Shown in pieces: positions 2,729-64,000 of a stretch of 64,000 nucleotides of DNA. The position numbers and the translations under genes are program-made. A model generated the notes under the pieces. That model was not told the DNA's origin. It was given only the letters and a program-made list of their open reading frames with translations, and ran no database searches. Source of the stretch: Rhodothermales bacterium (GTDB lineage: Bacteria > Bacteroidota > Rhodothermia > Rhodothermales > VXPQ01). The DNA is taken from contig JAJECT010000024.1 of the NCBI GenBank assembly GCA_022821845.1, positions 2,393 through 66,392 on the forward strand, written 5' to 3'. Numbering within the stretch: position 1 is the stretch's first letter; each line of letters opens with the position of its first letter.

Positions 2729-4138
2729 ATGTCGAAAAAATCCAGCGCTACGAAACGCCTGCTGTGGATATTGGGCGGATTGATCCTCTTTCTTGCGGCC
2801 GTCGCTGTCACAGGGCGCGTCACGGGAATATTCGGGGACGGAAATAACGCCACGCAGGTGGAAACGGCCCAAGCCGAAGCCCGCAACATTACGCAGATCG
2901 TGACGGCTTCGGGGAGAGTGCAGCCCGAAACAGAAGTCGCGATCAGCCCGGACGTGTCCGGCGAGATCATCCAGCTGCCCATCAAGGAAGGCGACACTGT
3001 GCAACGCGGCATGCTCCTGGCCCGGATCAAGCCCGACTTCTACGCTACGCAGGTAGAACAGGCGCGCGCAGGCGTGTTGCAAGCGAAGGCCTCCATGGCG
3101 CAACGCGAAGCCGATTTGCTGGAAGCCGAATCGGAACGTACGCGCCAGCGGGATTTGTTCGAACGCGAGGCCATTGCGCGAAGCGTGCTGGAACAGGCGG
3201 AAACGCGCTACGAAGTAGCGAGGGCCGGCCTGGAGGGCGCGGAATATGCGGTGGAAAGCGCCGAGGCGCGCCTGCGCGAAGCCGAAGAGCAGGTGCGTAA
3301 GACTGCCATCTACAGTCCCATGTCGGGCACCATCAGCGTACTGCACGTGGAACTGGGCGAACGCGTGGTTGGAACCAGCCAGATGGCCGGCACGGAAATG
3401 ATGCGCGTGGCCCGCCTCGACCATATGGAGGTGGAAATCGAGGTGAACGAGAACGAGATCGTCAATGTGGCGCTGGGCGACACCGCGTCCATCGAAGTCG
3501 ATGCGTATCCCGAACGCAATTTCCGGGGCGTGGTGACCGAGATCGCCAACTCCGCCCGCACGACCGCCGCCGGAACGCAGGAGCAGGTCACCGAATTCCC
3601 CGTCAAGGTGCGCATTCTGGACGCCCACAACATCCAGGAAGGCTATTCGGAGCAGCGGGGCACGATCACCCAGGCCGAAGTGTCCGCCCCCCTTGACGAC
3701 GCGCCGCTTTTCCGGCCCGGCATGAGCGCAACCGTGGACGTCTATACGGAAACCGTCACGGATGCGGTAGCCATTCCGATTCAGGCCGTTACGGTGCGCG
3801 ACGTATCCCGCATGCGCGACGAGGACGAAAAGGATGCAGCCCCTGCGGAAACGGAGGAGAACGCCGCGGACGCAATGGCTTCGGATTCGTCCGGGGCCGC
3901 CCCGGCGCAGGAGGCGCTAAGCAAGGTGGTGTTCCTCGCGGCGGACGGCAAGGTCCGCGTCGTTAAGGTGGAAACGGGGATATCCGACGACACGCACATC
4001 GAGGTCAAGGCGGGGCTTGCCGTCGGCGATCAGGTTGTTACAGGACCGTACAGCGCCGTCAGCCGCTCGCTGAACCACAACGCCTCGATACGCGTCGAGG
4101 AAAACAATGCGCCCGACGTATCCCAGGCCGGTTCGTAA
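2729..4138 (+). CDS. efflux RND-type periplasmic adaptor (HlyD/MacA family)
   Basis: Start refined to the internal ATG (MSKKSSATKRLLWILGG, TM anchor). The track ORF 2630.. overlaps the tolC end. Lipoyl/barrel-sandwich motifs are present (VSGEIIQLPIKEGDTVQRGMLLARI) with a long coiled-coil insert. Confidence 0.85.
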   Translation: MSKKSSATKRLLWILGGLILFLAAVAVTGRVTGIFGDGNNATQVETAQAEARNITQIVTASGRVQPETEVAISPDVSGEIIQLPIKEGDTVQRGMLLARIKPDFYATQVEQARAGVLQAKASMAQREADLLEAESERTRQRDLFEREAIARSVLEQAETRYEVARAGLEGAEYAVESAEARLREAEEQVRKTAIYSPMSGTISVLHVELGERVVGTSQMAGTEMMRVARLDHMEVEIEVNENEIVNVALGDTASIEVDAYPERNFRGVVTEIANSARTTAAGTQEQVTEFPVKVRILDAHNIQEGYSEQRGTITQAEVSAPLDDAPLFRPGMSATVDVYTETVTDAVAIPIQAVTVRDVSRMRDEDEKDAAPAETEENAADAMASDSSGAAPAQEALSKVVFLAADGKVRVVKVETGISDDTHIEVKAGLAVGDQVVTGPYSAVSRSLNHNASIRVEENNAPDVSQAGS

Positions 4139-4192
4139 CCCCGCCCGCTCGGCCCTCCGCAGGTCCTATCACGCACAGCGACAATCCCTCCC

Positions 4193-4915
4193 ATGGAAGA
4201 ACGACAAGCGCTTATAGCATTGCGCGACATCGCCCGGGTTTATTACATGGGCGAACATGAAGTGCATGCCCTCGCCGGGGTATCGGTGGACGTATTCGAG
4301 AACGAATACGTAGCGATTATGGGGGCTTCCGGTTCCGGAAAATCCACGTTGATGAATATCGTGGGCTGCCTGGATTCGCCGACAGGAGGCGCCTACTACC
4401 TCAATGGACAGCGCGTCAGCGAAATGACCGACAACGAACTGGCCAACGTACGCAATCGCGAAATAGGGTTCGTCTTCCAGACATTCAACCTCCTGGCCCG
4501 GGCCGATTGCCTGCACAACGTGGAATTGCCGCTGGTGTACAGCGGAATCCGGCGGAGAGAACGCCGCGAGATGGCGGAAGACGCCCTGGAGCGCGTAGGC
4601 CTGGCCGACAGGATATCGCACAAACCAAACGAATTGTCCGGGGGGCAGCGGCAGCGCGTCGCCGTGGCCCGGGCGCTGGTCAACAAGCCCTCGATTATTC
4701 TGGCCGACGAGCCCACGGGCAACCTGGACACGAAAACAGGCAAGGAAATCATGCACCTGTTCGAACAACTCTATCGACAGGGGAACACCTTGCTAGTCGT
4801 TACGCACGAAAACGAGGTGGCGCAACATGCGCGCCGGATCATTCGCCTGGTAGACGGCAACATAGACAGCGACGTGTCTGTGGAAAATCCCGTGCTGGCT
4901 TCCGTCGCCGCCTGA
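4193..4915 (+). CDS. ABC transporter ATP-binding protein (MacB/LolD type)
   Basis: Walker [10 protein letters not shown], signature [15 protein letters not shown], Walker [13 protein letters not shown]-loop VVTHE. Confidence 0.9.
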
Positions 4916-4949
4916 CGTTCGGGTCGGAAACTGCCTCGGTGGGAATACG

Positions 4950-5477
4950 CTACGAACTGCCGCGGCGGCGAGGTCCGAACGTACAGCGATATTCTTCTTC
5001 CAGCCGCTTGAAGCGGATCGGCAAATCCGTCGCAGGGGTAAGCACGGCCTGAAACGGCACGGTCTCGGCAGCCGCCGTCAGGCAATCGTCCGAAGGAATT
5101 TCCACAAGGTATTCGGCGACAAGGACCGTATCCATCCGGTCAAGGGACAGAAACGAGACGGCGTAGCCGCTGGTGGTTTGCGGCAGCGCGGCAAGCAGGA
5201 CAACAGCCTGGGAAAAATCCACAGGCAGGAAAGGCGCCACCGGACGCAGCGAATCTTGCCAGGCCGCCCAGGTTTCGGGGTCCCGAATAACGATTTCCAG
5301 CGTGTCCCTCAGCGTACCGTACTGCCCGTACCCGATGGCCGAAAAAAGGACGGGCTCCGGGAGCGGCTCTTCGACCGCCTCCGGCGCGGCGTTGCAGCCG
5401 CCGAACAAAAGACTCGCCGTCAGCAACAACGGAATGGCAGCGATACGGGCGCGGCGCGCGGCGCAGGACAGCGTCAT
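4950..5477 (-). CDS. lipoprotein, possibly PrcB-C-domain-like
   Basis: Lipobox LLFGGC. Start overlaps the stop of the upstream permease by 1 nt (TAATG). Pattern VDFSQAVVLLAALPQTTSGYAVSF resembles the PrcB C-terminal domain, but this is recognised from memory only. Confidence 0.5.
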   Translation of the reverse strand: MTLSCAARRARIAAIPLLLTASLLFGGCNAAPEAVEEPLPEPVLFSAIGYGQYGTLRDTLEIVIRDPETWAAWQDSLRPVAPFLPVDFSQAVVLLAALPQTTSGYAVSFLSLDRMDTVLVAEYLVEIPSDDCLTAAAETVPFQAVLTPATDLPIRFKRLEEEYRCTFGPRRRGSS

Positions 5478-6700
5478 TATTCGTAGCGAAGGGAGTCGAT
5501 GGGATTCAGGCGGGCCGCCTTGAGCGCCGGATAGCCGCCGAAAACCAGCGCCACCGTCGTCACAATGACTATGGTGACGCCCGCCCAGACCCAGGGGATG
5601 GTGCCGGAGATGTTAAAATACAGCGCCGTGCCGTTCCCGGCCAGCGCGCCCAAAAGAAAGCCTGCGCCGCCCCCGATCTGGCACAGAAAGATGGCTTCCA
5701 GAATGAATTGCCGCATAATATCCCGGCGGCGGGCGCCCAGCGCCTTGCGAATGCCGATCTCGCGGGTGCGTTCCGTAACCGAAACAAGCATAATGTTCAT
5801 GATCCCGATGCCCGCCGCAAGAAGAGAAATAAACCCGATGGCGGCGCCGGCCTGGGTAAGCACGGCGGTAAACTGATCGAAAATGGCGCGCATGGAATCA
5901 TTCGTTTCCACGACGAAATCGTTCTCCTCGCCAGGAGGAACCTTGCGAATGGCCCGCAACCGCCCGATCACCTCTTCCATCCCGGCGGCGACGAACTGCG
6001 GGCCCGGCGTACGTACGCTGGTCGAAGCAATGTTTCGCCGGGCGCCGCCATACCGGAGAAAAAGCGTACCCATGGGGACAAACACCCGGTTGTCCATATT
6101 GAAACCCAGGAAATTCCCCTTGGCCTCCAGTACGCCGATCACCTGATAGCGCGCGCCGCCGAACTCCGCCACCTTGCCAATGGGGTTTTCGGTGGCGAAC
6201 AATTCTTCGGACACCGCCGAGCCCAGAATCACCACCTTTCTTGCGTACTGTATGTCTTCGGGCGTAAAGGAGCGTCCGAATTCGATCTCGTAGCTGAAAT
6301 TACCCGTAAAATTCTCGTCGGTGCCCAGAATCGCTACGTTGGGATCTGTTTCCCGGGCGGCGTACCGAATGGAGGTCACGTCGAAATCCTCTATGGCGCT
6401 GACCTGGTACCGATCATCCAGCACCCGCTTCAGGCGATCAACCTGATCCATCGTAATACGCTGGCGATACTTGAACTCGCGCTCCCCGACCTGAAAATTT
6501 TCGTAGCGGGAAATGGTGAAGGTGGAGGTGCCAAGGAAAGACATCTTTTCCTCGAAATACACGTCGATCACCTTCACGGCCGTAATCGACACGATAATGG
6601 CGAATACGCCGATGACCATGCCGAGCAAGGTCAGCATGGTGCGCATCTTGTTGGCGCGCAATGAATTCCAGGCAGAGGCTATAATGTCCCGCAGTTCCAT
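5477..6700 (-). CDS. ABC transporter permease (MacB_PCD + FtsX domains)
   Basis: 407 aa. N-terminal TM helix, large periplasmic domain and a C-terminal FtsX 3-TM bundle (TERTREIGIRKALGARRRDI). Confidence 0.85.
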   Translation of the reverse strand: MELRDIIASAWNSLRANKMRTMLTLLGMVIGVFAIIVSITAVKVIDVYFEEKMSFLGTSTFTISRYENFQVGEREFKYRQRITMDQVDRLKRVLDDRYQVSAIEDFDVTSIRYAARETDPNVAILGTDENFTGNFSYEIEFGRSFTPEDIQYARKVVILGSAVSEELFATENPIGKVAEFGGARYQVIGVLEAKGNFLGFNMDNRVFVPMGTLFLRYGGARRNIASTSVRTPGPQFVAAGMEEVIGRLRAIRKVPPGEENDFVVETNDSMRAIFDQFTAVLTQAGAAIGFISLLAAGIGIMNIMLVSVTERTREIGIRKALGARRRDIMRQFILEAIFLCQIGGGAGFLLGALAGNGTALYFNISGTIPWVWAGVTIVIVTTVALVFGGYPALKAARLNPIDSLRYE

Positions 6701-6721: not shown

Positions 6722-7978
6722 TTATTCGTAGCGAAGCGATTCGATGGGGTCCGATTTGGCGCCTGCCCAGGCCGGCGCCAGGCCGAAAACGAGCCCTACG
6801 AAGGTGCAGATTGCAAAAGCAAGGAAAATCGTTCCGATGGGCAGCAAGGTCGGCAGCGACAACGCCATACTGAGCAGCTGGGCGCAAATGGTGGCGAATC
6901 CGACGCCGATCAGGCCGCCTGCAAGGCATATCGCCACGGCCTCGATCAGAAACTGGATGAGAATCGTACGCTGCTTCGCGCCGACGGCCTTGCGGATTCC
7001 GATTTCCCGCGTACGCTCCTTCACCGAAACGAACATGATGTTCATCACGCCGATGCCGCCCACCAGAAGCGCCAGCGCCGTCAGGAAGATGCCGACGCCG
7101 TAGATCATACGTTTGACCGGCGCCAACTCGGCGCGCAGTTCTTCCAGGTCGTTGATCTCGAAATTGTCGTCCTCGCCGGCGGGGACCGCGCGCGCGACGC
7201 GCACGATGCCCGTCAATTCATCCTTGGCCGCATCCGGATCGACGCCCGGCGCAATCCTGGCCTGCACGGAAACGCCCCGGTAGCGCAAGCCGAAAATATT
7301 GGCGAACGTTTCCAGCGGAATGCGCGCGCGCTGATCTATGGAACCCGGCCCCTCGGCGCCCTGCCCCTTTTTCTCCATCACGCCAATCACCTGAAACCGG
7401 TGTCCGGCGATGCGAACGGATTTGCCGAGCGGATTTTCGGCGGGAAACAGGGTCTCCGCCACATTGGCGCCAATGACGGCGACGCGGCGGGCCGTCCGGT
7501 TATCCAGTTCCGAATAGAACCGGCCCGAGGCCAGTTCCACCACATGCACGCGTTCGTATGCGCTGGTGGACGCTTCGATCATGACCGGGGCTATGGAATA
7601 CGACCCGTGCGTGACCGGCCTGGACGTGGAGACAACCGGCGCGGCGGCCGCCACGAGCCGGGCGCGATCCGAAATGGTTTCCGCAAGCTCCGGCTTGATC
7701 TCCGGACGGTTGATGTATTCCCACCATTTGGTGTTGGGACCGCCGGTCCAGGGCCATTTTTCGACGTACGCGACGTCCGTGCCCAGCTCGGAAAGCGTAT
7801 TCTCGAAAAATTGCTCGATGCCGTTGATCACAGTGACCATGGCGGTAACCGAAGTAATGCCGATCACGATGCCGACCATCGTCAGGGCGGACCGCATTTT
7901 ATGCGCAGCGATCGCGCGCAACCCGGTCCGGATTGCCTCAAGCAATTCGTACAGTAGAAAATTCAGTTTCTTGACCAC
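6722..7978 (-). CDS. ABC transporter permease (MacB_PCD + FtsX domains), paralog of 5477..6700
   Basis: The track ORF (574 aa, TTG start at 8446) has an implausible low-complexity N-terminus. The homologous region starts near VVKKLNFLLYELLEAIRTGLRAIAAHKMRS, so I call the GTG at 7978. FtsX motif KERTREIGIRKAVGAKQRTI. Confidence 0.8.
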   Translation of the reverse strand: MVKKLNFLLYELLEAIRTGLRAIAAHKMRSALTMVGIVIGITSVTAMVTVINGIEQFFENTLSELGTDVAYVEKWPWTGGPNTKWWEYINRPEIKPELAETISDRARLVAAAAPVVSTSRPVTHGSYSIAPVMIEASTSAYERVHVVELASGRFYSELDNRTARRVAVIGANVAETLFPAENPLGKSVRIAGHRFQVIGVMEKKGQGAEGPGSIDQRARIPLETFANIFGLRYRGVSVQARIAPGVDPDAAKDELTGIVRVARAVPAGEDDNFEINDLEELRAELAPVKRMIYGVGIFLTALALLVGGIGVMNIMFVSVKERTREIGIRKAVGAKQRTILIQFLIEAVAICLAGGLIGVGFATICAQLLSMALSLPTLLPIGTIFLAFAICTFVGLVFGLAPAWAGAKSDPIESLRYE

Positions 7979-8201
7979 GGGGACGGCGCAGGAGCAAGCA
8001 TGGAAAGACGACGAACGAAAAATGCGCGAAAAGCGCCCACATCGTATACGTACGAGGGGGCGAAAAGATACGTTGCCCGCCTTGTTGCGCATCCGGGCGA
8101 AAAAATCCTTTACGGCGGGAACGGTTGTACTGTTTTGCCTTATATAATTCTGGCTCTCCCATTTCTGTAAAATATCATCGGCGCCGCGCAGGCATAATGC
8201 A

Positions 8202-9518
8202 ATGAACCGACGGAAATTCCTCAAAGCGACCGCGCTGGGAAGCGCAAGCCTTGGCTTCGCCCCGGCGACGATACGCGCATTCGCGTCCAGCCCGCCCAGC
8301 GATACGATCCGGGCCGCCGTAATGGGCGTAAACAGCCGGGGCGGCGGTTTGGCCGAGTCGTTTCTCAAGCAACATAACGTAAGCGTACGATACATTTGCG
8401 ACGTCGATTCCCGGGCAGTCCGGCAAGTGTCGCGGAACGTAGGCAAAATGCAGGACGAAAAGGTAGAGGGCCTGGTCGATTTCCGCCGCGCCCTGGAAGA
8501 CCCGGACGTCGATGCGCTCGTCGTCGCCGCCCCGGATCACTGGCATGCGCCCGCCACGATCCTTGCTCTGGAGGCAGGCAAACATGTATATGTCGAAAAA
8601 CCCTGCGGGCACAATCCGCGCGAAGGAGAATTGCTTGTGGCCGCGCAAGCGCGGTACGGCGGCGTCGTGCAGATGGGTACGCAGCAACGCTCCGGCCCCG
8701 CAACCATCGAAGCGATCCAACGCATCCACGAGGGCGCGATAGGGCGGGCGTACTTTGCGCGCACCTGGTACGCCAATACGCGGAAGTCCATCGGGCGGGG
8801 CAAGACAGCGGATATTCCCCGGTGGCTGGATTACGAATTATGGCAAGGCCCGGCGCCGCGGACGCCGTACCGCAACAATGTGGTGCATTATAACTGGCAC
8901 TGGTTCTGGCGATGGGGCACTGGCGAGGTGTGCAACAACGGTACGCACGAAATCGATGTGGCCCGGTGGGCGCTGGGCGTGGATTTTCCCACCCGCGTCA
9001 ATTCGAGCGGCGGACGGTATCACTACGACGACGACTGGGAGTTTTACGATACGCAGGACGTGTCCTACGATTTCGAGGAGGGCAAAACGATCACCTGGGA
9101 AGGCAGAAGTTGCAACGGCTTTCCTGTGCACGACCGGGGACGCGGCGCGCTGGTGCACGGCACCGACGGAACGATATTGATTGACAGGAACGGGTACGTA
9201 ATGTACGACCAGGAAAACGCCGTCGTGAAGGAGGTGAAGGAAAAGAATCTGGAGGCCACCATGGACACGACCGGCGGCGGAGGCCAGACAGACCGCCACA
9301 TGGCCAATTTCCTCGATGCGATTCGGGACGGACGTCCGCTGCATTCCCCCATTGACGAGGGGCACAAAAGCGTACTCTTGTGCCACCTTGCGAACATCGC
9401 GCAGGACATCGGGCAAGCGCTGCATTGCAATCCGGAAAACGGACGCATCGACGGCAATCCCGAAGCCATGCAACGCTGGTCGCGGGAATACGAACCCGGC
9501 TGGGAACCCTCGGTTTAA
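8202..9518 (+). CDS. Gfo/Idh/MocA family oxidoreductase with TAT signal
   Basis: N-terminal twin-arginine signal MNRRKFLKATALG. Rossmann N-domain (IRAAVMGVNSRG) and the typical C-terminal dimerisation domain. Confidence 0.85.
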   Translation: MNRRKFLKATALGSASLGFAPATIRAFASSPPSDTIRAAVMGVNSRGGGLAESFLKQHNVSVRYICDVDSRAVRQVSRNVGKMQDEKVEGLVDFRRALEDPDVDALVVAAPDHWHAPATILALEAGKHVYVEKPCGHNPREGELLVAAQARYGGVVQMGTQQRSGPATIEAIQRIHEGAIGRAYFARTWYANTRKSIGRGKTADIPRWLDYELWQGPAPRTPYRNNVVHYNWHWFWRWGTGEVCNNGTHEIDVARWALGVDFPTRVNSSGGRYHYDDDWEFYDTQDVSYDFEEGKTITWEGRSCNGFPVHDRGRGALVHGTDGTILIDRNGYVMYDQENAVVKEVKEKNLEATMDTTGGGGQTDRHMANFLDAIRDGRPLHSPIDEGHKSVLLCHLANIAQDIGQALHCNPENGRIDGNPEAMQRWSREYEPGWEPSV

Positions 9519-9588
9519 GCGCGGCGGGAACCCTTTGTTTGAGCGCGGAACGCGGAAAAGCGCAGCGGCTTCTGGCCCGGAACGCGCC

Positions 9589-11253
9589 CTATGGCCGCGC
9601 CGTAACGGTGGCGGTGGCTTCGGGGCTTTCGGCGTATCCGTAGCGAATGGCCTTGGCCCGGATGGTGGCGGTCGTTCCCGGTTCGAGGCGAATCGGACGG
9701 GCATAGAGTTTCCAGTGCGGCTCCTCGCCCTCGTCGGTAGTCCAGGCAATGGAGGCGCCGTCCGTACCAGCCTCCATAATGATCTCGACCGGACCGTCCT
9801 GCTCCGCTTCCAGTTCCCTGTCCGTATCGTTGCGCCTCAGGATGAGCGGCGTGGCCGTAACAGGCTGCTTTTCGCCCATCCACATCTCGCGGACCATCTG
9901 ATCTTCGGACATGTGCCCCTTCTCGTCGATGTCGCGCATCCAGGCGTCCAGTTCGGCGCGCATCCGGCTGAGCGCATCGCCAAACGCGGGATCGTCCGCC
10001 AGATTGCGAACCTCATGCGGATCGGCCTCGACATCGTACAGTTCTTCCGGAGGGCGGCTGTCGCGTAGCCACAATTGCTGGACGTCGTCAAGTTCGCCGT
10101 CGATATGCAGGCGGAATATCTCCTGAATGATGGACGAGCGGTTGCGGTACGGAACGAACTGTACGTACGGCTTTTCCGGGTGAAAATTGCGAATGTACTT
10201 GTACCGTTTGTCGCGGGCGGCGCGGACCATGTCGTACGCCATGTCGATGCGGTCCCGGGCGGCGTAGATATATTCGCGCGGCGGGGCCTCCGCATCTCCG
10301 AGAAAAGCCATGCCGTCCATGTGCGCGGGAACGGGTACGCCGGCAAGGGACAAGACGGTGGGCCCCAGATCGACCAGGCTGACAAGCCGCTCGCTGGCCG
10401 AACCGGCCCCTTGCTGTCCGGGCGTCCGCACGATGAGCGGGACATGGATGCCGGAATCGTAGAGCCAGCGTTTGGCGCGGGGCAAGCCGTCGCCGTGATC
10501 GCCCCAGAAAAAGACGACGGTGTTGTCGGCCAGGCCGTCCTCTTCCAGCTGGCGCAGAATTTCTCCGGCCTGCGCGTCGAGGCGGGCAATGTTGTCGTAG
10601 TGTTTGGCCAGTTGGCGGCGTACGTCCGGCGTATCCGGGTAGTAGGGGGGCAATGCGAGCGTAGCGGGGTCTGTCGTCGTCTCCTCGCCCGGCTCGACCC
10701 AGCTTTGACTCTCATGGGTGACCCCGAAGTTGAATACGGAAAAGAACGGCTGGCCCTCCTTCCGAAGCGGGCTGCGCCAGTGCGCTCCGCGCTTGTGCTC
10801 GTCCCAGATGGTGACGGGGTTGCCGATCTGGTAGTCGGTCTTGACGTCGTTCGTCGCGAAATACCCGGCGGCCCGGAGATATTCCGTGAAGGCCTTTACG
10901 TAGGGAGGCGGCGTGGCATGGTATGGCGTGGGAATGCCGGGCGCATCGTGCGTGGTGCGCATATGATGCCCTCCCCAACCGTTCTGGTGCATGCCTGTGA
11001 TGATGGCCGCCCGGCTCGGCGCGCACACGCCGGCGGTCGTAAACGCTTGCAGGTAGCGGGTCCCCTCGGCGGCGAGGCGGTCCAGGTTCGGCGTGTTCGC
11101 CGCGGCGTCGCCGTAGGCGCCGAACCGCAGGCTGACGTCTTCGGCGGAAATCCAGACGATATTGGGCCGCTCCTGCGCAAGGGCGGGCGCGGCGGCGAAC
11201 GCAACCAGCAAAGACCAGAAGCAAAAGCGCAGGACGGAAAGCGATATTTTCAT
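9589..11253 (-). CDS. sulfatase (formylglycine-dependent arylsulfatase family)
   Basis: Signal peptide. CxPxR motif CAPSRAAIITG with GMHQ downstream. Typical sulfatase N-domain (PNIVWISAED). Confidence 0.9.
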   Translation of the reverse strand: MKISLSVLRFCFWSLLVAFAAAPALAQERPNIVWISAEDVSLRFGAYGDAAANTPNLDRLAAEGTRYLQAFTTAGVCAPSRAAIITGMHQNGWGGHHMRTTHDAPGIPTPYHATPPPYVKAFTEYLRAAGYFATNDVKTDYQIGNPVTIWDEHKRGAHWRSPLRKEGQPFFSVFNFGVTHESQSWVEPGEETTTDPATLALPPYYPDTPDVRRQLAKHYDNIARLDAQAGEILRQLEEDGLADNTVVFFWGDHGDGLPRAKRWLYDSGIHVPLIVRTPGQQGAGSASERLVSLVDLGPTVLSLAGVPVPAHMDGMAFLGDAEAPPREYIYAARDRIDMAYDMVRAARDKRYKYIRNFHPEKPYVQFVPYRNRSSIIQEIFRLHIDGELDDVQQLWLRDSRPPEELYDVEADPHEVRNLADDPAFGDALSRMRAELDAWMRDIDEKGHMSEDQMVREMWMGEKQPVTATPLILRRNDTDRELEAEQDGPVEIIMEAGTDGASIAWTTDEGEEPHWKLYARPIRLEPGTTATIRAKAIRYGYAESPEATATVTARP

Positions 11254-62640: not shown

Positions 62641-62790
62641 TATGCGTTTTTTGCATGAAAAGGCCCTTGTCTATGCGTTTTTTGCATAGAGAAGCGTTTG
62701 CCTATGTGCTTTTTGCATAGAAGACGTGTTTGTCTATGCGTTTTTTGCATAAAAATACTTGTGTCTATGCAATTTTTGCATAATAGAGCC
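62641..62790 (+). repeat. five tandem 31/32-bp units, each carrying a TATGC-N7-GCATA palindrome
   Basis: Units start at 62641, 62672, 62703, 62735 and 62766, for example TATGCGTTTTTTGCATAGAGAAGCGTTTGCC. Lies in the divergent intergenic region between the TonB receptor (start 62333) and the methyltransferase (start 62943). Confidence 0.7.
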
Positions 62791-62942
62791 TGGCCAAGTC
62801 CGCGTTGTATGCCGCAAGGCGCTGGCGCGCCGGACGAAAGGTTTTGATCGGCGCGGCCTTGACAATCTCGTGGCGGACGGCGTATACTACAGGCCGAAAA
62901 CGACGCGCCCGCCGCTATCCTGCATTTATGCCCGCTTGATTT

Positions 62943-63962
62943 ATGGCCCTTTCGTCCGCAAAACGATCCGCCGCTCGTTCTATCGCTGCGAACGGCGTAC
63001 AATCCGTTGTAAACGAGTACGACGAGATCTACGCCGAAGGATTGGAGACCAGGAAAAAACGTTATCAGTCCTTCGTCAACAACTACTACGACCTCGTAAC
63101 CGATTTTTACGAATTCGGCTGGGGGCAATCCTTTCACTTCGCCCCCCGGCGCCGGGGCGAACGGTTCAAGGCGTCGCTGCTCAGGCACCAGCGTTACCTT
63201 GCGGATACGCTGTCCCTGAAACCGGAGATGCAGGTGCTGGACGCAGGATGCGGCGTCGGAGGCCCCATGGGCAATATGGCTCGCTGGACCGGCGCCCGCT
63301 TCGTCGGCGTCAACAACAACGCGTATCAGATCGAGCGCGCCAGGAAGCATACCGGGGACGTCCGCTCGCTATGCCGATTCCTGCACGCCGACTACATGAA
63401 TATCCCCGAGGGCGACCATGCCTACGACGCGGCCTTCGCGATCGAATCCATGCCGCACGCGCCCGACAAAACAGCGGCGTTTCGGGAAATTTTTCGCGTA
63501 CTGCGGCCAGGAGCCCGGTTTGCGGGCTACGAGTGGTGTCTTACCGAGCGTTTCGACCCCGAGGACCCGGAGCATTTGCGCATCAAACACGATATCATGG
63601 TAGGAGACGCGCTCCCGGACATTTCCAGTCCGTCTGACATTTGCAGCGCGTTGCGCGACGCCGGTTTCGAACTGCTCGAAGCCCGCGACCTCGCCCCCGA
63701 ATCGGATCCGGAAACGCCGTGGTACCGCGCCCTGCAAGGCCGCGACTTCTCCCTTGCGAGCATTCCGCGTACGCCTGCCGGCCGCGCCCTGACGAATCTG
63801 ACCTTGCGGGTTGGCGAACGGCTGCGTCTGGTCCCGCAGGGATCGAGGGCTGTCAGCACATTGCTCAATGCAGCAGCCGACGCGCTGGTCAAAGGGGGCG
63901 AACACGGTGTTTTTACGCCCATGTTTCTGTTTGTGGCGCGTAAACCCGGAAAGGCGGAATGA
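62943..63962 (+). CDS. sterol 24-C-methyltransferase (Erg6/SMT) family SAM-dependent methyltransferase
   Basis: Collinear over its full length with eukaryotic SMT1/Erg6 as I recall them: YYDLVTDFYEFGWGQSFHF, VLDAGCGVGGP, NNNAYQIERA, YEWCLTERFDPEDPEH, and C-terminal FTPMFLFVARKP (Sterol_MT_C signature). Confidence 0.85.
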   Translation: MALSSAKRSAARSIAANGVQSVVNEYDEIYAEGLETRKKRYQSFVNNYYDLVTDFYEFGWGQSFHFAPRRRGERFKASLLRHQRYLADTLSLKPEMQVLDAGCGVGGPMGNMARWTGARFVGVNNNAYQIERARKHTGDVRSLCRFLHADYMNIPEGDHAYDAAFAIESMPHAPDKTAAFREIFRVLRPGARFAGYEWCLTERFDPEDPEHLRIKHDIMVGDALPDISSPSDICSALRDAGFELLEARDLAPESDPETPWYRALQGRDFSLASIPRTPAGRALTNLTLRVGERLRLVPQGSRAVSTLLNAAADALVKGGEHGVFTPMFLFVARKPGKAE

Positions 63963-64000
63963 AGTACGTTTTCGACCCGGAAATCCTCCACGAGGCGGCC
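63959..64000 (+). CDS. 5' end of an unidentified gene translationally coupled to the methyltransferase
   Basis: The ATG overlaps the upstream stop (GAATGA). It reads MKYVFDPEILHEAA... and then runs off the window. Confidence 0.3.
   Translation, partial: MKYVFDPEILHEAA

Follow-up and report, generated by a model that had tools for sequence, protein, structure and literature searches.

A gene of the sterol C-24 methyltransferase (SMT/Erg6) family lies at the end of the window, the 64,000-nucleotide stretch of Rhodothermales DNA analysed here, and it is a genuine bacterial C-24 SMT gene at the edge of a complete sterol cluster. Very probably, its product is a functional SAM-dependent C-24 SMT, encoded in an SMT-ERG2 operon, working in a de novo sterol pathway and belonging to a horizontally spread cluster. 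The assignment is correct but ordinary and already known: the enzyme class, the cluster layout, the spread among sponge symbionts and the activity in vitro have all been published, so that the locus opens no new question. The first-pass annotation had described bacterial side-chain methylation as only recently reported, which is accurate, and the studies concerned (Hoshino & Gaucher 2021; Kelly et al. 2022; Brown et al. 2023) already cover the same cluster type.

The sterol C-24 methyltransferase

The SMT gene (62943-63962, + strand) is an intact ORF with an ATG start, and it encodes a soluble protein of 339 aa, the length read in the first pass; the protein is also collinear with the SMT family from end to end, as claimed there, with 39-46% identity over the full length to named SMTs of plants, fungi and algae. 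The five motif blocks listed from the sequence were all found, and they fall on invariant columns in an alignment with SMTs named as such by their sources (rice cycloartenol-C-24-methyltransferase 1-like, Cladosporium Erg6, Spizellomyces, Zancudomyces and Mesostigma). These blocks are YYDLVTDFYEFGWGQSFHF, with T53, Y56, E57, G59, W60, G61, F64, H65 and F66 invariant; the SAM-binding VLDAGCGVGGP, with D100, G102, C103, G104, G106, G107 and P108 invariant across eight SMTs; NNNAYQIERA (Y128, Q129); YEWCLTERFDPEDPEH (E197, W198, T201, D205); and, at the C-terminus, FTPMFLFVARKP (F324, T325, P326, R333, K334). The signature FYEFGWGQSFHF keeps Y56, E57, G59, W60, G61, F64, H65 and F66 invariant with respect to the named eukaryotic SMTs; its consensus, YE(Y/F/W)GWGxSFHF, is what we take to be the sterol-binding Region I, in the name and role given by the Nes laboratory.

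As for the domains, the protein carries Pfam Sterol_MT_C (PF08498) at residues 276-335, with an E value of 2.8e-22 and a score of 79 bits, where the cut-off is 21.7. It also carries Methyltransf_11 (E 1.3e-17), a Rossmann-type methyltransferase domain that contains the class I SAM-binding motif LDxGCGxGGP. The score for Pfam CMAS is no more than 41 bits, and the non-SMT NCBIfam models are all far below their cut-offs. This agreement of motifs and domains with the SMT family is well beyond chance. In a tree of 126 sequences, built with SH-aLRT support and without an explicit outgroup, the protein groups with sequences annotated as SMTs at their source (rice SMT1-like, Cladosporium Erg6, chytrid, Mesostigma, and Polyangiaceae and Acidimicrobiia "sterol methyltransferase"), and, in line with the Pfam and NCBIfam scores, not with cyclopropane-fatty-acid or other methyltransferases. 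It falls, with strong support (99), in a multi-phylum symbiont SMT clade, on the same side of the tree as the named bacterial SMTs; the separation of this side from the named eukaryotic SMTs is only weakly supported (SH-aLRT 83). Its domains, its motifs, its collinearity over the full length and its position in the tree all place the protein in the SMT/Erg6 family; this reading is supported, and those tests proposed for refuting it that were run fail to do so.

The gene is the sole SMT of the genome, a divergent second paralogue type (about 42% identical) being absent. It has 92% amino acid identity, a dS of 0.21 and a dN/dS of 0.19 with respect to its orthologue in the closest relative found, the Rhodothermales MAG jk18x25bins.61 (L005), and is the most diverged gene of the cluster. 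A recent swap of the SMT allele was considered and is not supported: the gene is the strongly supported sister of the L005 copy and has an ordinary dN/dS.

The coupled ERG2-like gene

The stop codon of the SMT gene had been described as overlapping the ATG of a gene that leaves the window, and both points are confirmed: in GAATGA (63957-63962), the SMT TGA (63960-63962) overlaps the next ATG (63959-63961) within a 4-nt ATGA, and the downstream gene is an ERG2/sigma-1-receptor homologue, of the sterol delta8-to-delta7 isomerase family, with its 5' end at 63959-64000 (+ strand) in the window. The full gene encodes 191 aa and ends at the window-equivalent position 64534 (G000:C36:66351-66926; L004 2351-2926). 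A translationally coupled two-gene operon, with SMT first, is the best explanation of this arrangement.

The ERG2 protein carries Pfam ERG2_Sigma1R (PF04622) with an E value of 1.9e-66, covering profile positions 21-205 of 210 and with them the cupin-like body that binds the ligand; among PDB entries, it matches the sigma-1 receptor 7w2b best (E 1.1e-37, 180 residues aligned). In the alignment with 7w2b, the Glu of the W-x-x-E-Y-x-R-G motif is kept, and Ala stands where the receptor has the Asp of "AEISDTI". The match begins at receptor residue 35, where the bacterial protein itself starts, so that the N-terminal transmembrane anchor, which fungal ERG2 also has, is missing; no hydrophobic segment is predicted in the protein, where no 19-residue window reaches 1.6. 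Judged by its domain, the predicted protein is thus a family member in an anchor-less form. Its dN/dS with respect to L005 is 0.03. Of 50 symbiont genomes with an SMT, only 5 have ERG2, which in each of them lies directly 3' of the SMT gene.

The convergent operon and the rest of the genome

No cyclase or other sterol gene had been seen in the window, which holds only because the window ends 38 bases after the SMT stop; the cyclase operon lies directly beyond its edge. Inspection of the downstream region, suggested in the first pass, revealed that SMT-ERG2 (+ strand) faces a convergent operon of five genes, sdmB, sdmA, ERG24, CYP51 and a squalene epoxidase/oxidosqualene cyclase (SE-OSC) fusion; the genome search likewise suggested found one cyclase, the SE-OSC, with CYP51, ERG24, SdmA, SdmB and ERG2 at the same locus.

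The SE-OSC fusion (G000:C36 66819-70427, - strand; Pfam, NCBIfam and PDB matches) is a single ORF of about 1201-1202 aa, with the SE part at residues 31-332 and the N and C SQHop_cyclase domains at 507-1135; it is the only triterpene cyclase of the genome, about 500 bp 3' of the SMT gene, and in about 55 loci the fusion is kept as a single HSP. It matches human lanosterol synthase 1w6k with an E value of 2e-131, against 1e-41 for squalene-hopene cyclase, and the NCBIfam model osq_cycl is its best match, with 702 bits, below the strict equivalog cut-off. The catalytic Asp455 is kept, and Val occupies human position 453, the residue that gives the lanosterol rule for bacterial cyclases (PMC4919349). 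The tail of the protein is longer than in L005 (1202 aa versus about 1157 aa); a functional extension was rejected as the cause, the difference being due to a change of frame past the cyclase domain, by which the ORF continues into the 3' end of ERG2 in antisense.

Regarding the other four genes, the P450 (G000:C36 70355-71767, - strand) is assigned to CYP51 by its best PDB matches, 7jj1, 6mi0 and 6mcw (E 5e-107 to 6.4e-107), the further matches being essentially all CYP51 or sterol 14-alpha-demethylases; ERG24 (71777-72877, - strand) matches the delta14-sterol reductase 4quv with an E value of 2e-69. The C-4 demethylase pair consists of the Rieske protein SdmA (72864-74147, - strand; NF052579, E 2.1e-123) and the SDR SdmB (74014-75093, - strand; NF052578, E 1.4e-87), both models being clear best matches that score below their strict equivalog cut-offs. 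The seven cluster genes are all full length when compared with their homologues in 80 loci, and with dN/dS values of 0.03-0.22 with respect to L005 they are under purifying selection. Elsewhere in the genome (C25:97937-98809) there is a squalene-synthase-like gene, whose best model, the squalene synthase TIGR01559, gives 114 bits against a cut-off of 287; a search of the genome for ERG3/ERG25-type hydroxylases and for a second ERG4/ERG24 reductase found neither.

The region upstream of the SMT gene

A candidate sigma-70-like promoter of the SMT-ERG2 operon, proposed from its match to the consensus, is at 62859-62888 (+ strand; L004 1251-1280), about 55 nt 5' of the SMT ATG; it reads TTGACA, 18 nt, TATACT, with 11 matches out of 12, and it stays a candidate, one such promoter-like site being the chance expectation for the region.

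Between the SMT gene and a divergent TonB-receptor gene there is an array of five TATGC-N7-GCATA palindromes with a 31-bp period (62641-62790, no strand assigned), the stretch least conserved with respect to L005 (62% identity). The 17-bp palindrome TATGCAAnnnTTGCATA recurs in 31-bp-spaced arrays at about ten further loci of the genome, and the sdmB end of the cluster has no such array. The ORFs beside other arrays resemble RuvA, exonuclease I and a sugar nucleotidyltransferase, as judged by eye from their N-terminal residues only. A sterol-specific operator was considered for the array and rejected, the roughly ten other copies adjoining ORFs that look, by the same criterion, unrelated to sterols; the array is probably not specific to sterol genes.

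Host and spread of the cluster

The host is an uncultured Rhodothermales bacterium, putatively of the sponge-symbiont type. Among the 80 related loci, many belong to MAGs named in a way typical of sponges or corals (SB06xx_bin, Spongia_Bin9, RHO, APA, Plut, Poriferihabitaceae, Porisulfidus). Much the same cluster, its proteins 63-88% identical, is shared by MAGs from about ten phyla with record names of this kind, whereas RpoB identity from one of these phyla to another is just 50-57%; this difference indicates horizontal spread of the sterol gene set.

Proposed pathway and product

The route that we infer for the Rhodothermales host, in its substrates, step order, number of methyl additions and final product, would be a de novo one that combines the cluster with the squalene-synthase-like gene. 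Squalene would be epoxidised to oxidosqualene, which the cyclase with Val at human position 453 would convert into lanosterol; CYP51 and then ERG24 would carry out the C-14 demethylation and the reduction, SdmA and SdmB together the C-4 demethylation, the SMT would add a methyl group at C-24 of the delta24 side chain, and ERG2 would isomerise delta8 to delta7. That the SMT uses SAM to methylate a delta24 sterol side chain is suggested by an orthologue with 73% identity, which is active on desmosterol (PMC10070321).

The end product is likely a C28 delta7 sterol of the episterol or 24-methylenelophenol type, a conversion from zymosterol via SMT and ERG2 having been proposed (PMC8237579). The product of the tested orthologue is the delta25(27) sterol (epi)codisterol and not a 24-methylene sterol, which makes the position of the side-chain double bond uncertain; the SMTs of related clusters add one, two or three methyl groups (PMC10070321), so that the number of methylations here is not readable from sequence.

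A more far-reaching reading, which we put forward tentatively and rate somewhat below an even chance, is that the compact locus of about 9.8 kb (G000:C36:65335-75093) yields 24-alkylated delta7 sterols fully de novo, that SMT-ERG2 is a mobile module for two steps, and that the anchor-less ERG2 is an active monotopic isomerase; such a protein would resemble the ancestral form of the fungal ERG2/animal sigma-1 receptor family. Bolder still, and by analogy with some cluster-encoded symbiont SMTs, the single SMT might methylate repeatedly until it reaches the 24-isopropyl side chain, the "sponge biomarker".

Alternative explanations

The SMT might mainly alkylate sterols taken from a host or from food rather than self-made ones; Brown et al. 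discuss the modification of host sterols and propose such a role for a Chlamydiae SMT (PMC10070321). Five of the 12 related genomes checked (G022, G023, G026, G031 and G034), three of which are Rhodothermales (L035, L044 and L050), have a close SMT orthologue and no cyclase in the assembly, so the gene can evidently be retained without the pathway; however, these are draft MAGs, whose lack of a cyclase may reflect incompleteness, and in the genome studied here the SMT gene is about 500 bp from an intact SE-OSC and a full demethylation set, all under purifying selection. We consider this explanation improbable as the main role of the enzyme, and the two roles can coexist. Less probable again, and very unlikely in our judgement, is a non-sterol isoprenoid as the substrate, for instance squalene or another triterpenoid. 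The SMT-like triterpene methyltransferases of some algae do act on non-sterol substrates, and neither of the two sterols tested was methylated by 2 of 10 SMT homologues from sponge symbionts and 2 of 14 from the environment; against this, Region I and Sterol_MT_C are fully conserved, the orthologue active on desmosterol is a positional one, and the gene coupled to that of the SMT encodes a sterol isomerase homologue.

As the family is predominantly eukaryotic, sponge, algal or fungal DNA mis-binned in a bacterial MAG has also to be weighed, but its probability is next to nil: the gene has no introns and lies on a 166-kb contig with overlapping gene junctions of the bacterial style, flanked by a CarboxypepD_reg TonB receptor and ThuA/GSDH genes, and orthologues are found on closed bacterial chromosomes of 2-6 Mb. 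Eukaryotic contamination is ruled out by synteny with the second Rhodothermales MAG, L005, in which 21 kb, flanks included, are collinear at 95% nucleotide identity, with an RpoB 98% identical to that of the host.

Significance

24-Alkyl steranes in Neoproterozoic rocks are read as biomarkers of eukaryotes (algae or sponges), and bacterial SMTs within complete sterol pathways weaken this reading. The Rhodothermales locus is one more intact example, in which the uncommon ERG2 would extend the pathway by one step, to delta7 sterols. We know of no bacterium in which the de novo synthesis of side-chain-alkylated sterols has been demonstrated; the practical value of the locus is that of a compact, apparently complete candidate for the heterologous reconstitution of bacterial 24-methyl sterol synthesis, which is still missing from the literature surveyed.

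Comparison with known systems

[quoted passage not shown] It corresponds to L025:10001-11026, on a 70,077-bp contig of the Nitrospirales MAG Plut_88904; its 73% identity to the window SMT extends over the full length, and both fall in the same strongly supported clade, although the hosts belong to different phyla and their RpoB proteins are 56% identical. The two clusters have in common the fused SMO/OSC, already noted in PMC10070321, with CYP51, ERG24, sdmA and sdmB. In the Nitrospira locus, the SMT gene is co-directional with the adjoining sdmB, ERG2 is absent, and there is, 4.5 kb off, a second SMT paralogue, which is divergent; in the Rhodothermales cluster, instead, the SMT gene is convergent with the cyclase, coupled to ERG2, and the sole SMT of the genome.

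Kelly et al. 2022 (Microbiome, PMC9531527) described an ERG24-CYP51-LSS core operon preceded by a "DFR" and a hypothetical protein, here taken to be SdmB and SdmA, respectively; their clusters have an opposite-strand SMT at the 3' end, several have ERG2, and they were found in 10 phyla, including Rhodothermia, with horizontal transfer. The Rhodothermales cluster matches this layout, with an opposite-strand SMT gene at the end where the cyclase lies, and there is no substantive difference between the Rhodothermales locus and those clusters; what is added here is the SdmA/SdmB assignment, the squalene-synthase-like gene, cyclase residue 453 and the RpoB baseline for the lineage.

With respect to the eukaryotic enzymes, S. 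cerevisiae Erg6 and plant SMT1 have the same architecture (Methyltransf_11 plus Sterol_MT_C) and share all the signature motifs, and the yeast order of steps, Erg6 and then Erg2, is mirrored by the bacterial gene order, SMT and then ERG2. The bacterial SMT is shorter at the N-terminus (339 aa versus about 350-390), its gene is in an operon, unlike those of eukaryotes, and its pathway uses SdmA/SdmB and not ERG25-27. Finally, the "extended gene set" of early sterol synthesis of Hoshino & Gaucher 2021 (PNAS, PMC8237579), made of SQMO, OSC, CYP51, ERG24, C-4 demethylation, SMT and ERG2, is predicted to give episterol or 24-methylenelophenol from zymosterol or 4-methylzymosterol; the Rhodothermales locus is exactly this functional set, with the differences that C-4 demethylation relies on SdmA/SdmB in place of ERG25-27 and that the host is a member of the Rhodothermales and not of the Myxococcota.

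Sterol C-24 methyltransferase gene and protein

As for the sterol C-24 methyltransferase (SMT), the ORF listing places a 339-aa frame at 62943..63962 of the window (+), and the GAATGA at its end makes the TGA stop (63960-63962) overlap the ATG of the next ORF (63959-63961). Pfam finds the SMT-specific domain Sterol_MT_C (E 2.8e-22, 79 bits, cut-off 21.7), preceded by Methyltransf_11 (E 1.3e-17); CMAS, the model for cyclopropane synthases, scores no more than 41 bits, and no NCBIfam model of other methyltransferases comes near its cut-off. In an alignment with database proteins named SMT by their sources, and with a pair of bacterial SMTs from Polyangiaceae and Acidimicrobiia, collinearity with every sequence extends from about residue 40 of the protein down to its final residues; identity is 46% to the rice cycloartenol-C-24-methyltransferase 1-like protein, 42% to the SMT of Spizellomyces, 40% to Cladosporium Erg6 and to the Mesostigma protein, and 39% to the SMT of Zancudomyces. 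The ORF, the ATGA overlap and the motif blocks described in the first-pass annotation are confirmed by the ORF listing, the sequence and the alignment, where each block falls on invariant columns; its SMT-family interpretation is supported by Sterol_MT_C, the alignment with named SMTs and the weak CMAS score. The PDB sequence search returned generic class I methyltransferases as top matches, and no solved structure for an SMT of this type.

Upstream of the gene, a sigma-70-like site lies at 55 nt (11 of 12 positions, a consensus match only). Farther upstream, at window 62641-62790, is an array of an AT-rich 17-bp palindrome, TATGCAAnnnTTGCATA. In this genome, of 61% G+C, the palindrome is present in about ten intergenic places as arrays of two to five copies with 31-bp spacing; on the other contigs they lie at C6:62336-62477, C21:58661-58802, C28:102288-102397, C29:14283-14361, C34:158934-159065, C40:24511-24652 and C43:12554-12601, and on the window's own contig at C36:125083-125234. 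The array upstream of SMT is the stretch that differs most from the sister MAG L005 (62% identity). Judged from N-terminal residues only, neighbours of the arrays resemble RuvA, exonuclease I and a sugar nucleotidyltransferase; with such neighbours and about ten sites genome-wide, a sterol operator was rejected, and the arrays look like either a dispersed repeat or the sites where a global DNA-binding protein would bind.

Sterol gene cluster and proposed pathway

The window is G000:C36:2393-66392; contig C36 extends another 100 kb past its end, and the stretch C36:64001-84000 (L004), which spans that end, holds SMT and the rest of a sterol gene cluster. SMT (L004 1335-2354, +) is followed by the gene it overlaps, which encodes a 191-aa ERG2_Sigma1R protein (2351-2926, +; Pfam E 1.9e-66). 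Convergent with these two, on the minus strand, are a 1201-aa ORF fusing squalene epoxidase (residues 31-332) with an oxidosqualene-type cyclase (507-1135), here SE-OSC (2819-6427), a P450 (6355-7767), an ERG4/ERG24 reductase (7777-8877), a Rieske/VanA_C oxygenase (8864-10147) and an SDR/3-beta-HSD protein (10014-11093), with junctions ranging from 9-nt gaps to overlaps. The nearest solved relatives of the P450 are the CYP51 entries 7jj1, 6mi0 and 6mcw (E 5e-107 to 6.4e-107), with dozens more CYP51 or sterol 14-alpha-demethylase entries behind them; the reductase hits 4quv, a delta14-sterol reductase (E 2e-69), and the top NCBIfam matches of the last two proteins are the C-4 demethylation pair SdmA (4-beta-methylsterol monooxygenase, E 2e-123) and SdmB (E 1e-87). 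ERG24 is the sole polytopic membrane protein of the cluster; no transmembrane segment is predicted in SMT, ERG2 or CYP51. The first-pass annotation saw no cyclase or other sterol gene; this holds inside the window, and the caveat is resolved because the full pathway (SE-OSC, CYP51, ERG24, SdmA and SdmB) adjoins SMT just past its end. All seven cluster genes are intact and under purifying selection, with dN/dS against L005 from 0.03 (ERG2, the most constrained gene of the locus) to 0.22.

Regarding the cyclase, it matches human lanosterol synthase at E 2e-131 and squalene-hopene cyclase at 1e-41, and the catalytic Asp455-Cys456 is conserved; the residues at human positions 381/449/453 are Ala/His/Val, and among bacterial cyclases a full correlation ties Val453 to the making of lanosterol and Ile453 to that of cycloartenol (PMC4919349). 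Judged from coordinates and sequence, SE-OSC probably starts at Met24 of its longest ORF, where its ATG and the stop of CYP51 overlap in a further ATGA. Here the ORF has ~1201-1202 aa, as against ~1157 aa in L005 (95% identical): past the cyclase domain its frame changes, and it continues antisense over the final ~108 nt of ERG2 (L004 2819-2950, G000:C36:66819-66950). The extended tail is probably harmless; in the related locus L048 it likewise runs antisense over ERG2. Directly past the cluster, a 1223-aa protein with ThuA, glucose/sorbosone dehydrogenase, PKD and cytochrome c domains (L004 11638-15309, G000:C36:75638-79309), common to L005, marks the boundary.

The genome encodes one triterpene cyclase (SE-OSC), one ERG4/ERG24-family protein and one SMT, and a squalene-synthase-like gene lies on contig C25 (top model TIGR01559, score below cut-off). 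No FA_hydroxylase-family gene occurs in the genome, hence no ERG3- or ERG25-type enzyme. In the proposed pathway, SE-OSC would epoxidise squalene and cyclise it to lanosterol, CYP51 and ERG24 would remove the C-14 methyl group and reduce the delta14 bond, SdmA and SdmB would remove one or both C-4 methyl groups, SMT would methylate C-24 of the delta24 side chain, and ERG2 would shift delta8 to delta7. Because an ERG3-type desaturase and a second sterol reductase are lacking, the pathway should end with a C28 sterol that resembles episterol or 24-methylenelophenol; the substrates, step order, number of methylations and position of the side-chain double bond are those that we infer.

Phylogeny and horizontal spread

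Of the 394 proteins that passed E <= 1e-30 when HMMER was run exhaustively against 1.84 billion cluster representatives, 93 near-full-length ones were combined with the window's SMT and 32 SMTs from related loci, and a quick IQ-TREE analysis was run on these 126 sequences. The window's SMT is sister to that of L005 (SH-aLRT 99) and falls within a 27-sequence clade that spans eight phyla with very short internal branches (support 99). The half of the tree holding this clade contains the named bacterial SMTs, from a Polyangiaceae MAG and from Acidimicrobiia, including 'Candidatus Poriferisocius' (NCBI name 'sterol methyltransferase'); all named eukaryotic SMTs (rice, Cladosporium, chytrid, Zancudomyces, Mesostigma and EukProt transcriptomes) are in the other. 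The split has moderate support only (83) in a tree without outgroup, and agrees with the separate bacterial clades, weakly supported at depth, of Brown et al. (PMC10070321).

Relatives were scanned in one genome per GTDB species, giving 211, of which the best 80 were kept. The nearest among these, L005 (Rhodothermales MAG jk18x25bins.61), has an SMT 92% identical and other cluster proteins 95-99% identical; its RpoB is 98% identical, and the whole 21-kb locus, TonB-receptor and ThuA flanks included, is collinear at 95% nucleotide identity. Accordingly, the window's genome is that of a Rhodothermales bacterium. In the other loci, whose isolate names are frequently of sponge or coral type, SMT identity is 68-77%; their hosts are Nitrospirales, Alpha- and Gammaproteobacteria, Binatia, Gemmatimonadota, Opitutales, Vicinamibacteraceae, Nitrospinaceae and others. 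By tblastn with the seven cluster proteins, the gene set with the fusion is present in ~55 of the 80 loci at 63-88% identity. RpoB is only 50-57% identical between the window's genome and those phyla; since these metabolic enzymes are more alike across phyla than RpoB, the sequences indicate horizontal spread of the cluster between phyla. Likewise, despite an RpoB 71% identical, another Rhodothermales MAG (L055) has cluster proteins (64-70%, SdmA and SdmB near 80%) no nearer to the window's than those of Nitrospirales (73-79%, SdmB 83%, SdmA only 68%).

Five of 12 checked genomes (L035, L044, L050, L036 and L054) carry a close SMT orthologue (72-73%) and no triterpene cyclase in the assembly; the first three are Rhodothermales, one of these three on a 3.6-Mb contig. 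Such MAGs may alkylate sterols obtained from a host, or may be incomplete. The Alphaproteobacteria MAG p16x44bins.53 has three tandem SMT genes adjoining a cyclase (L030:1162-4336), one of the window's type (73%) and two divergent (49-50%) that cluster with the 'Poriferisocius' SMTs, an arrangement that is interesting with regard to side-chain alkylation in several steps. A second clade of SMT paralogues, on a long branch and with 41-43% identity to the window's SMT, is absent from the window's genome; it accompanies the cluster in Nitrospirales and Binatia MAGs (L006:4875-5759, L025:4642-5526, L042:13288-14199 and L053:11266-12282).

Comparison with known systems

The locus is an ordinary representative of a system that has been published and from which members have been sampled by experiment. 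Bacterial SMT and ERG2 were catalogued by Hoshino and Gaucher in 2021 (PMC8237579). Among 537 MAGs of Ircinia symbionts, Kelly et al. (2022) reported 'clusters of steroid genes' in 115, which belong to 10 phyla, including Rhodothermia, with 'DFR' and a hypothetical protein at the 5' flank, an opposite-strand SMT at the 3' flank, and ERG2 in several clusters (PMC9531527). Brown et al. (2023) described the same clusters (fused SMO/OSC, ERG11, ERG24, sdmA, sdmB and SMT) in sponge metagenomes and MAGs; 20 of 24 metagenomic SMTs methylated C-24 in vitro, and three build the 24-isopropyl side chain (PMC10070321). Their 'Nitrospira sp., coral reef' scaffold has one SMT (...274) beside sdmB (...275) and a second (...270) four genes off (PMC10070321). 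The gene order of the Nitrospirales locus L025 matches the IMG order of this scaffold, and therefore 'coral reef 1 of 2', the enzyme that converts desmosterol into (epi)codisterol (PMC10070321), is L025:10001-11026, which shares 73% identity with the window's SMT.

Finally, ERG2 is an uncommon accessory of the cluster: five of 50 SMT-bearing genomes have an ERG2_Sigma1R gene, in all five directly after SMT. Its alignment with the sigma-1 receptor starts at residue 35 of the receptor, and thus the protein is without the N-terminal anchor; the Glu of the WxxEYxRG motif is conserved, and an Ala is aligned to the Asp of the receptor's 'AEISDTI'. In yeast, Erg6 and then Erg2 catalyze consecutive steps, and the order of the SMT and ERG2 genes here mirrors the order of those steps.
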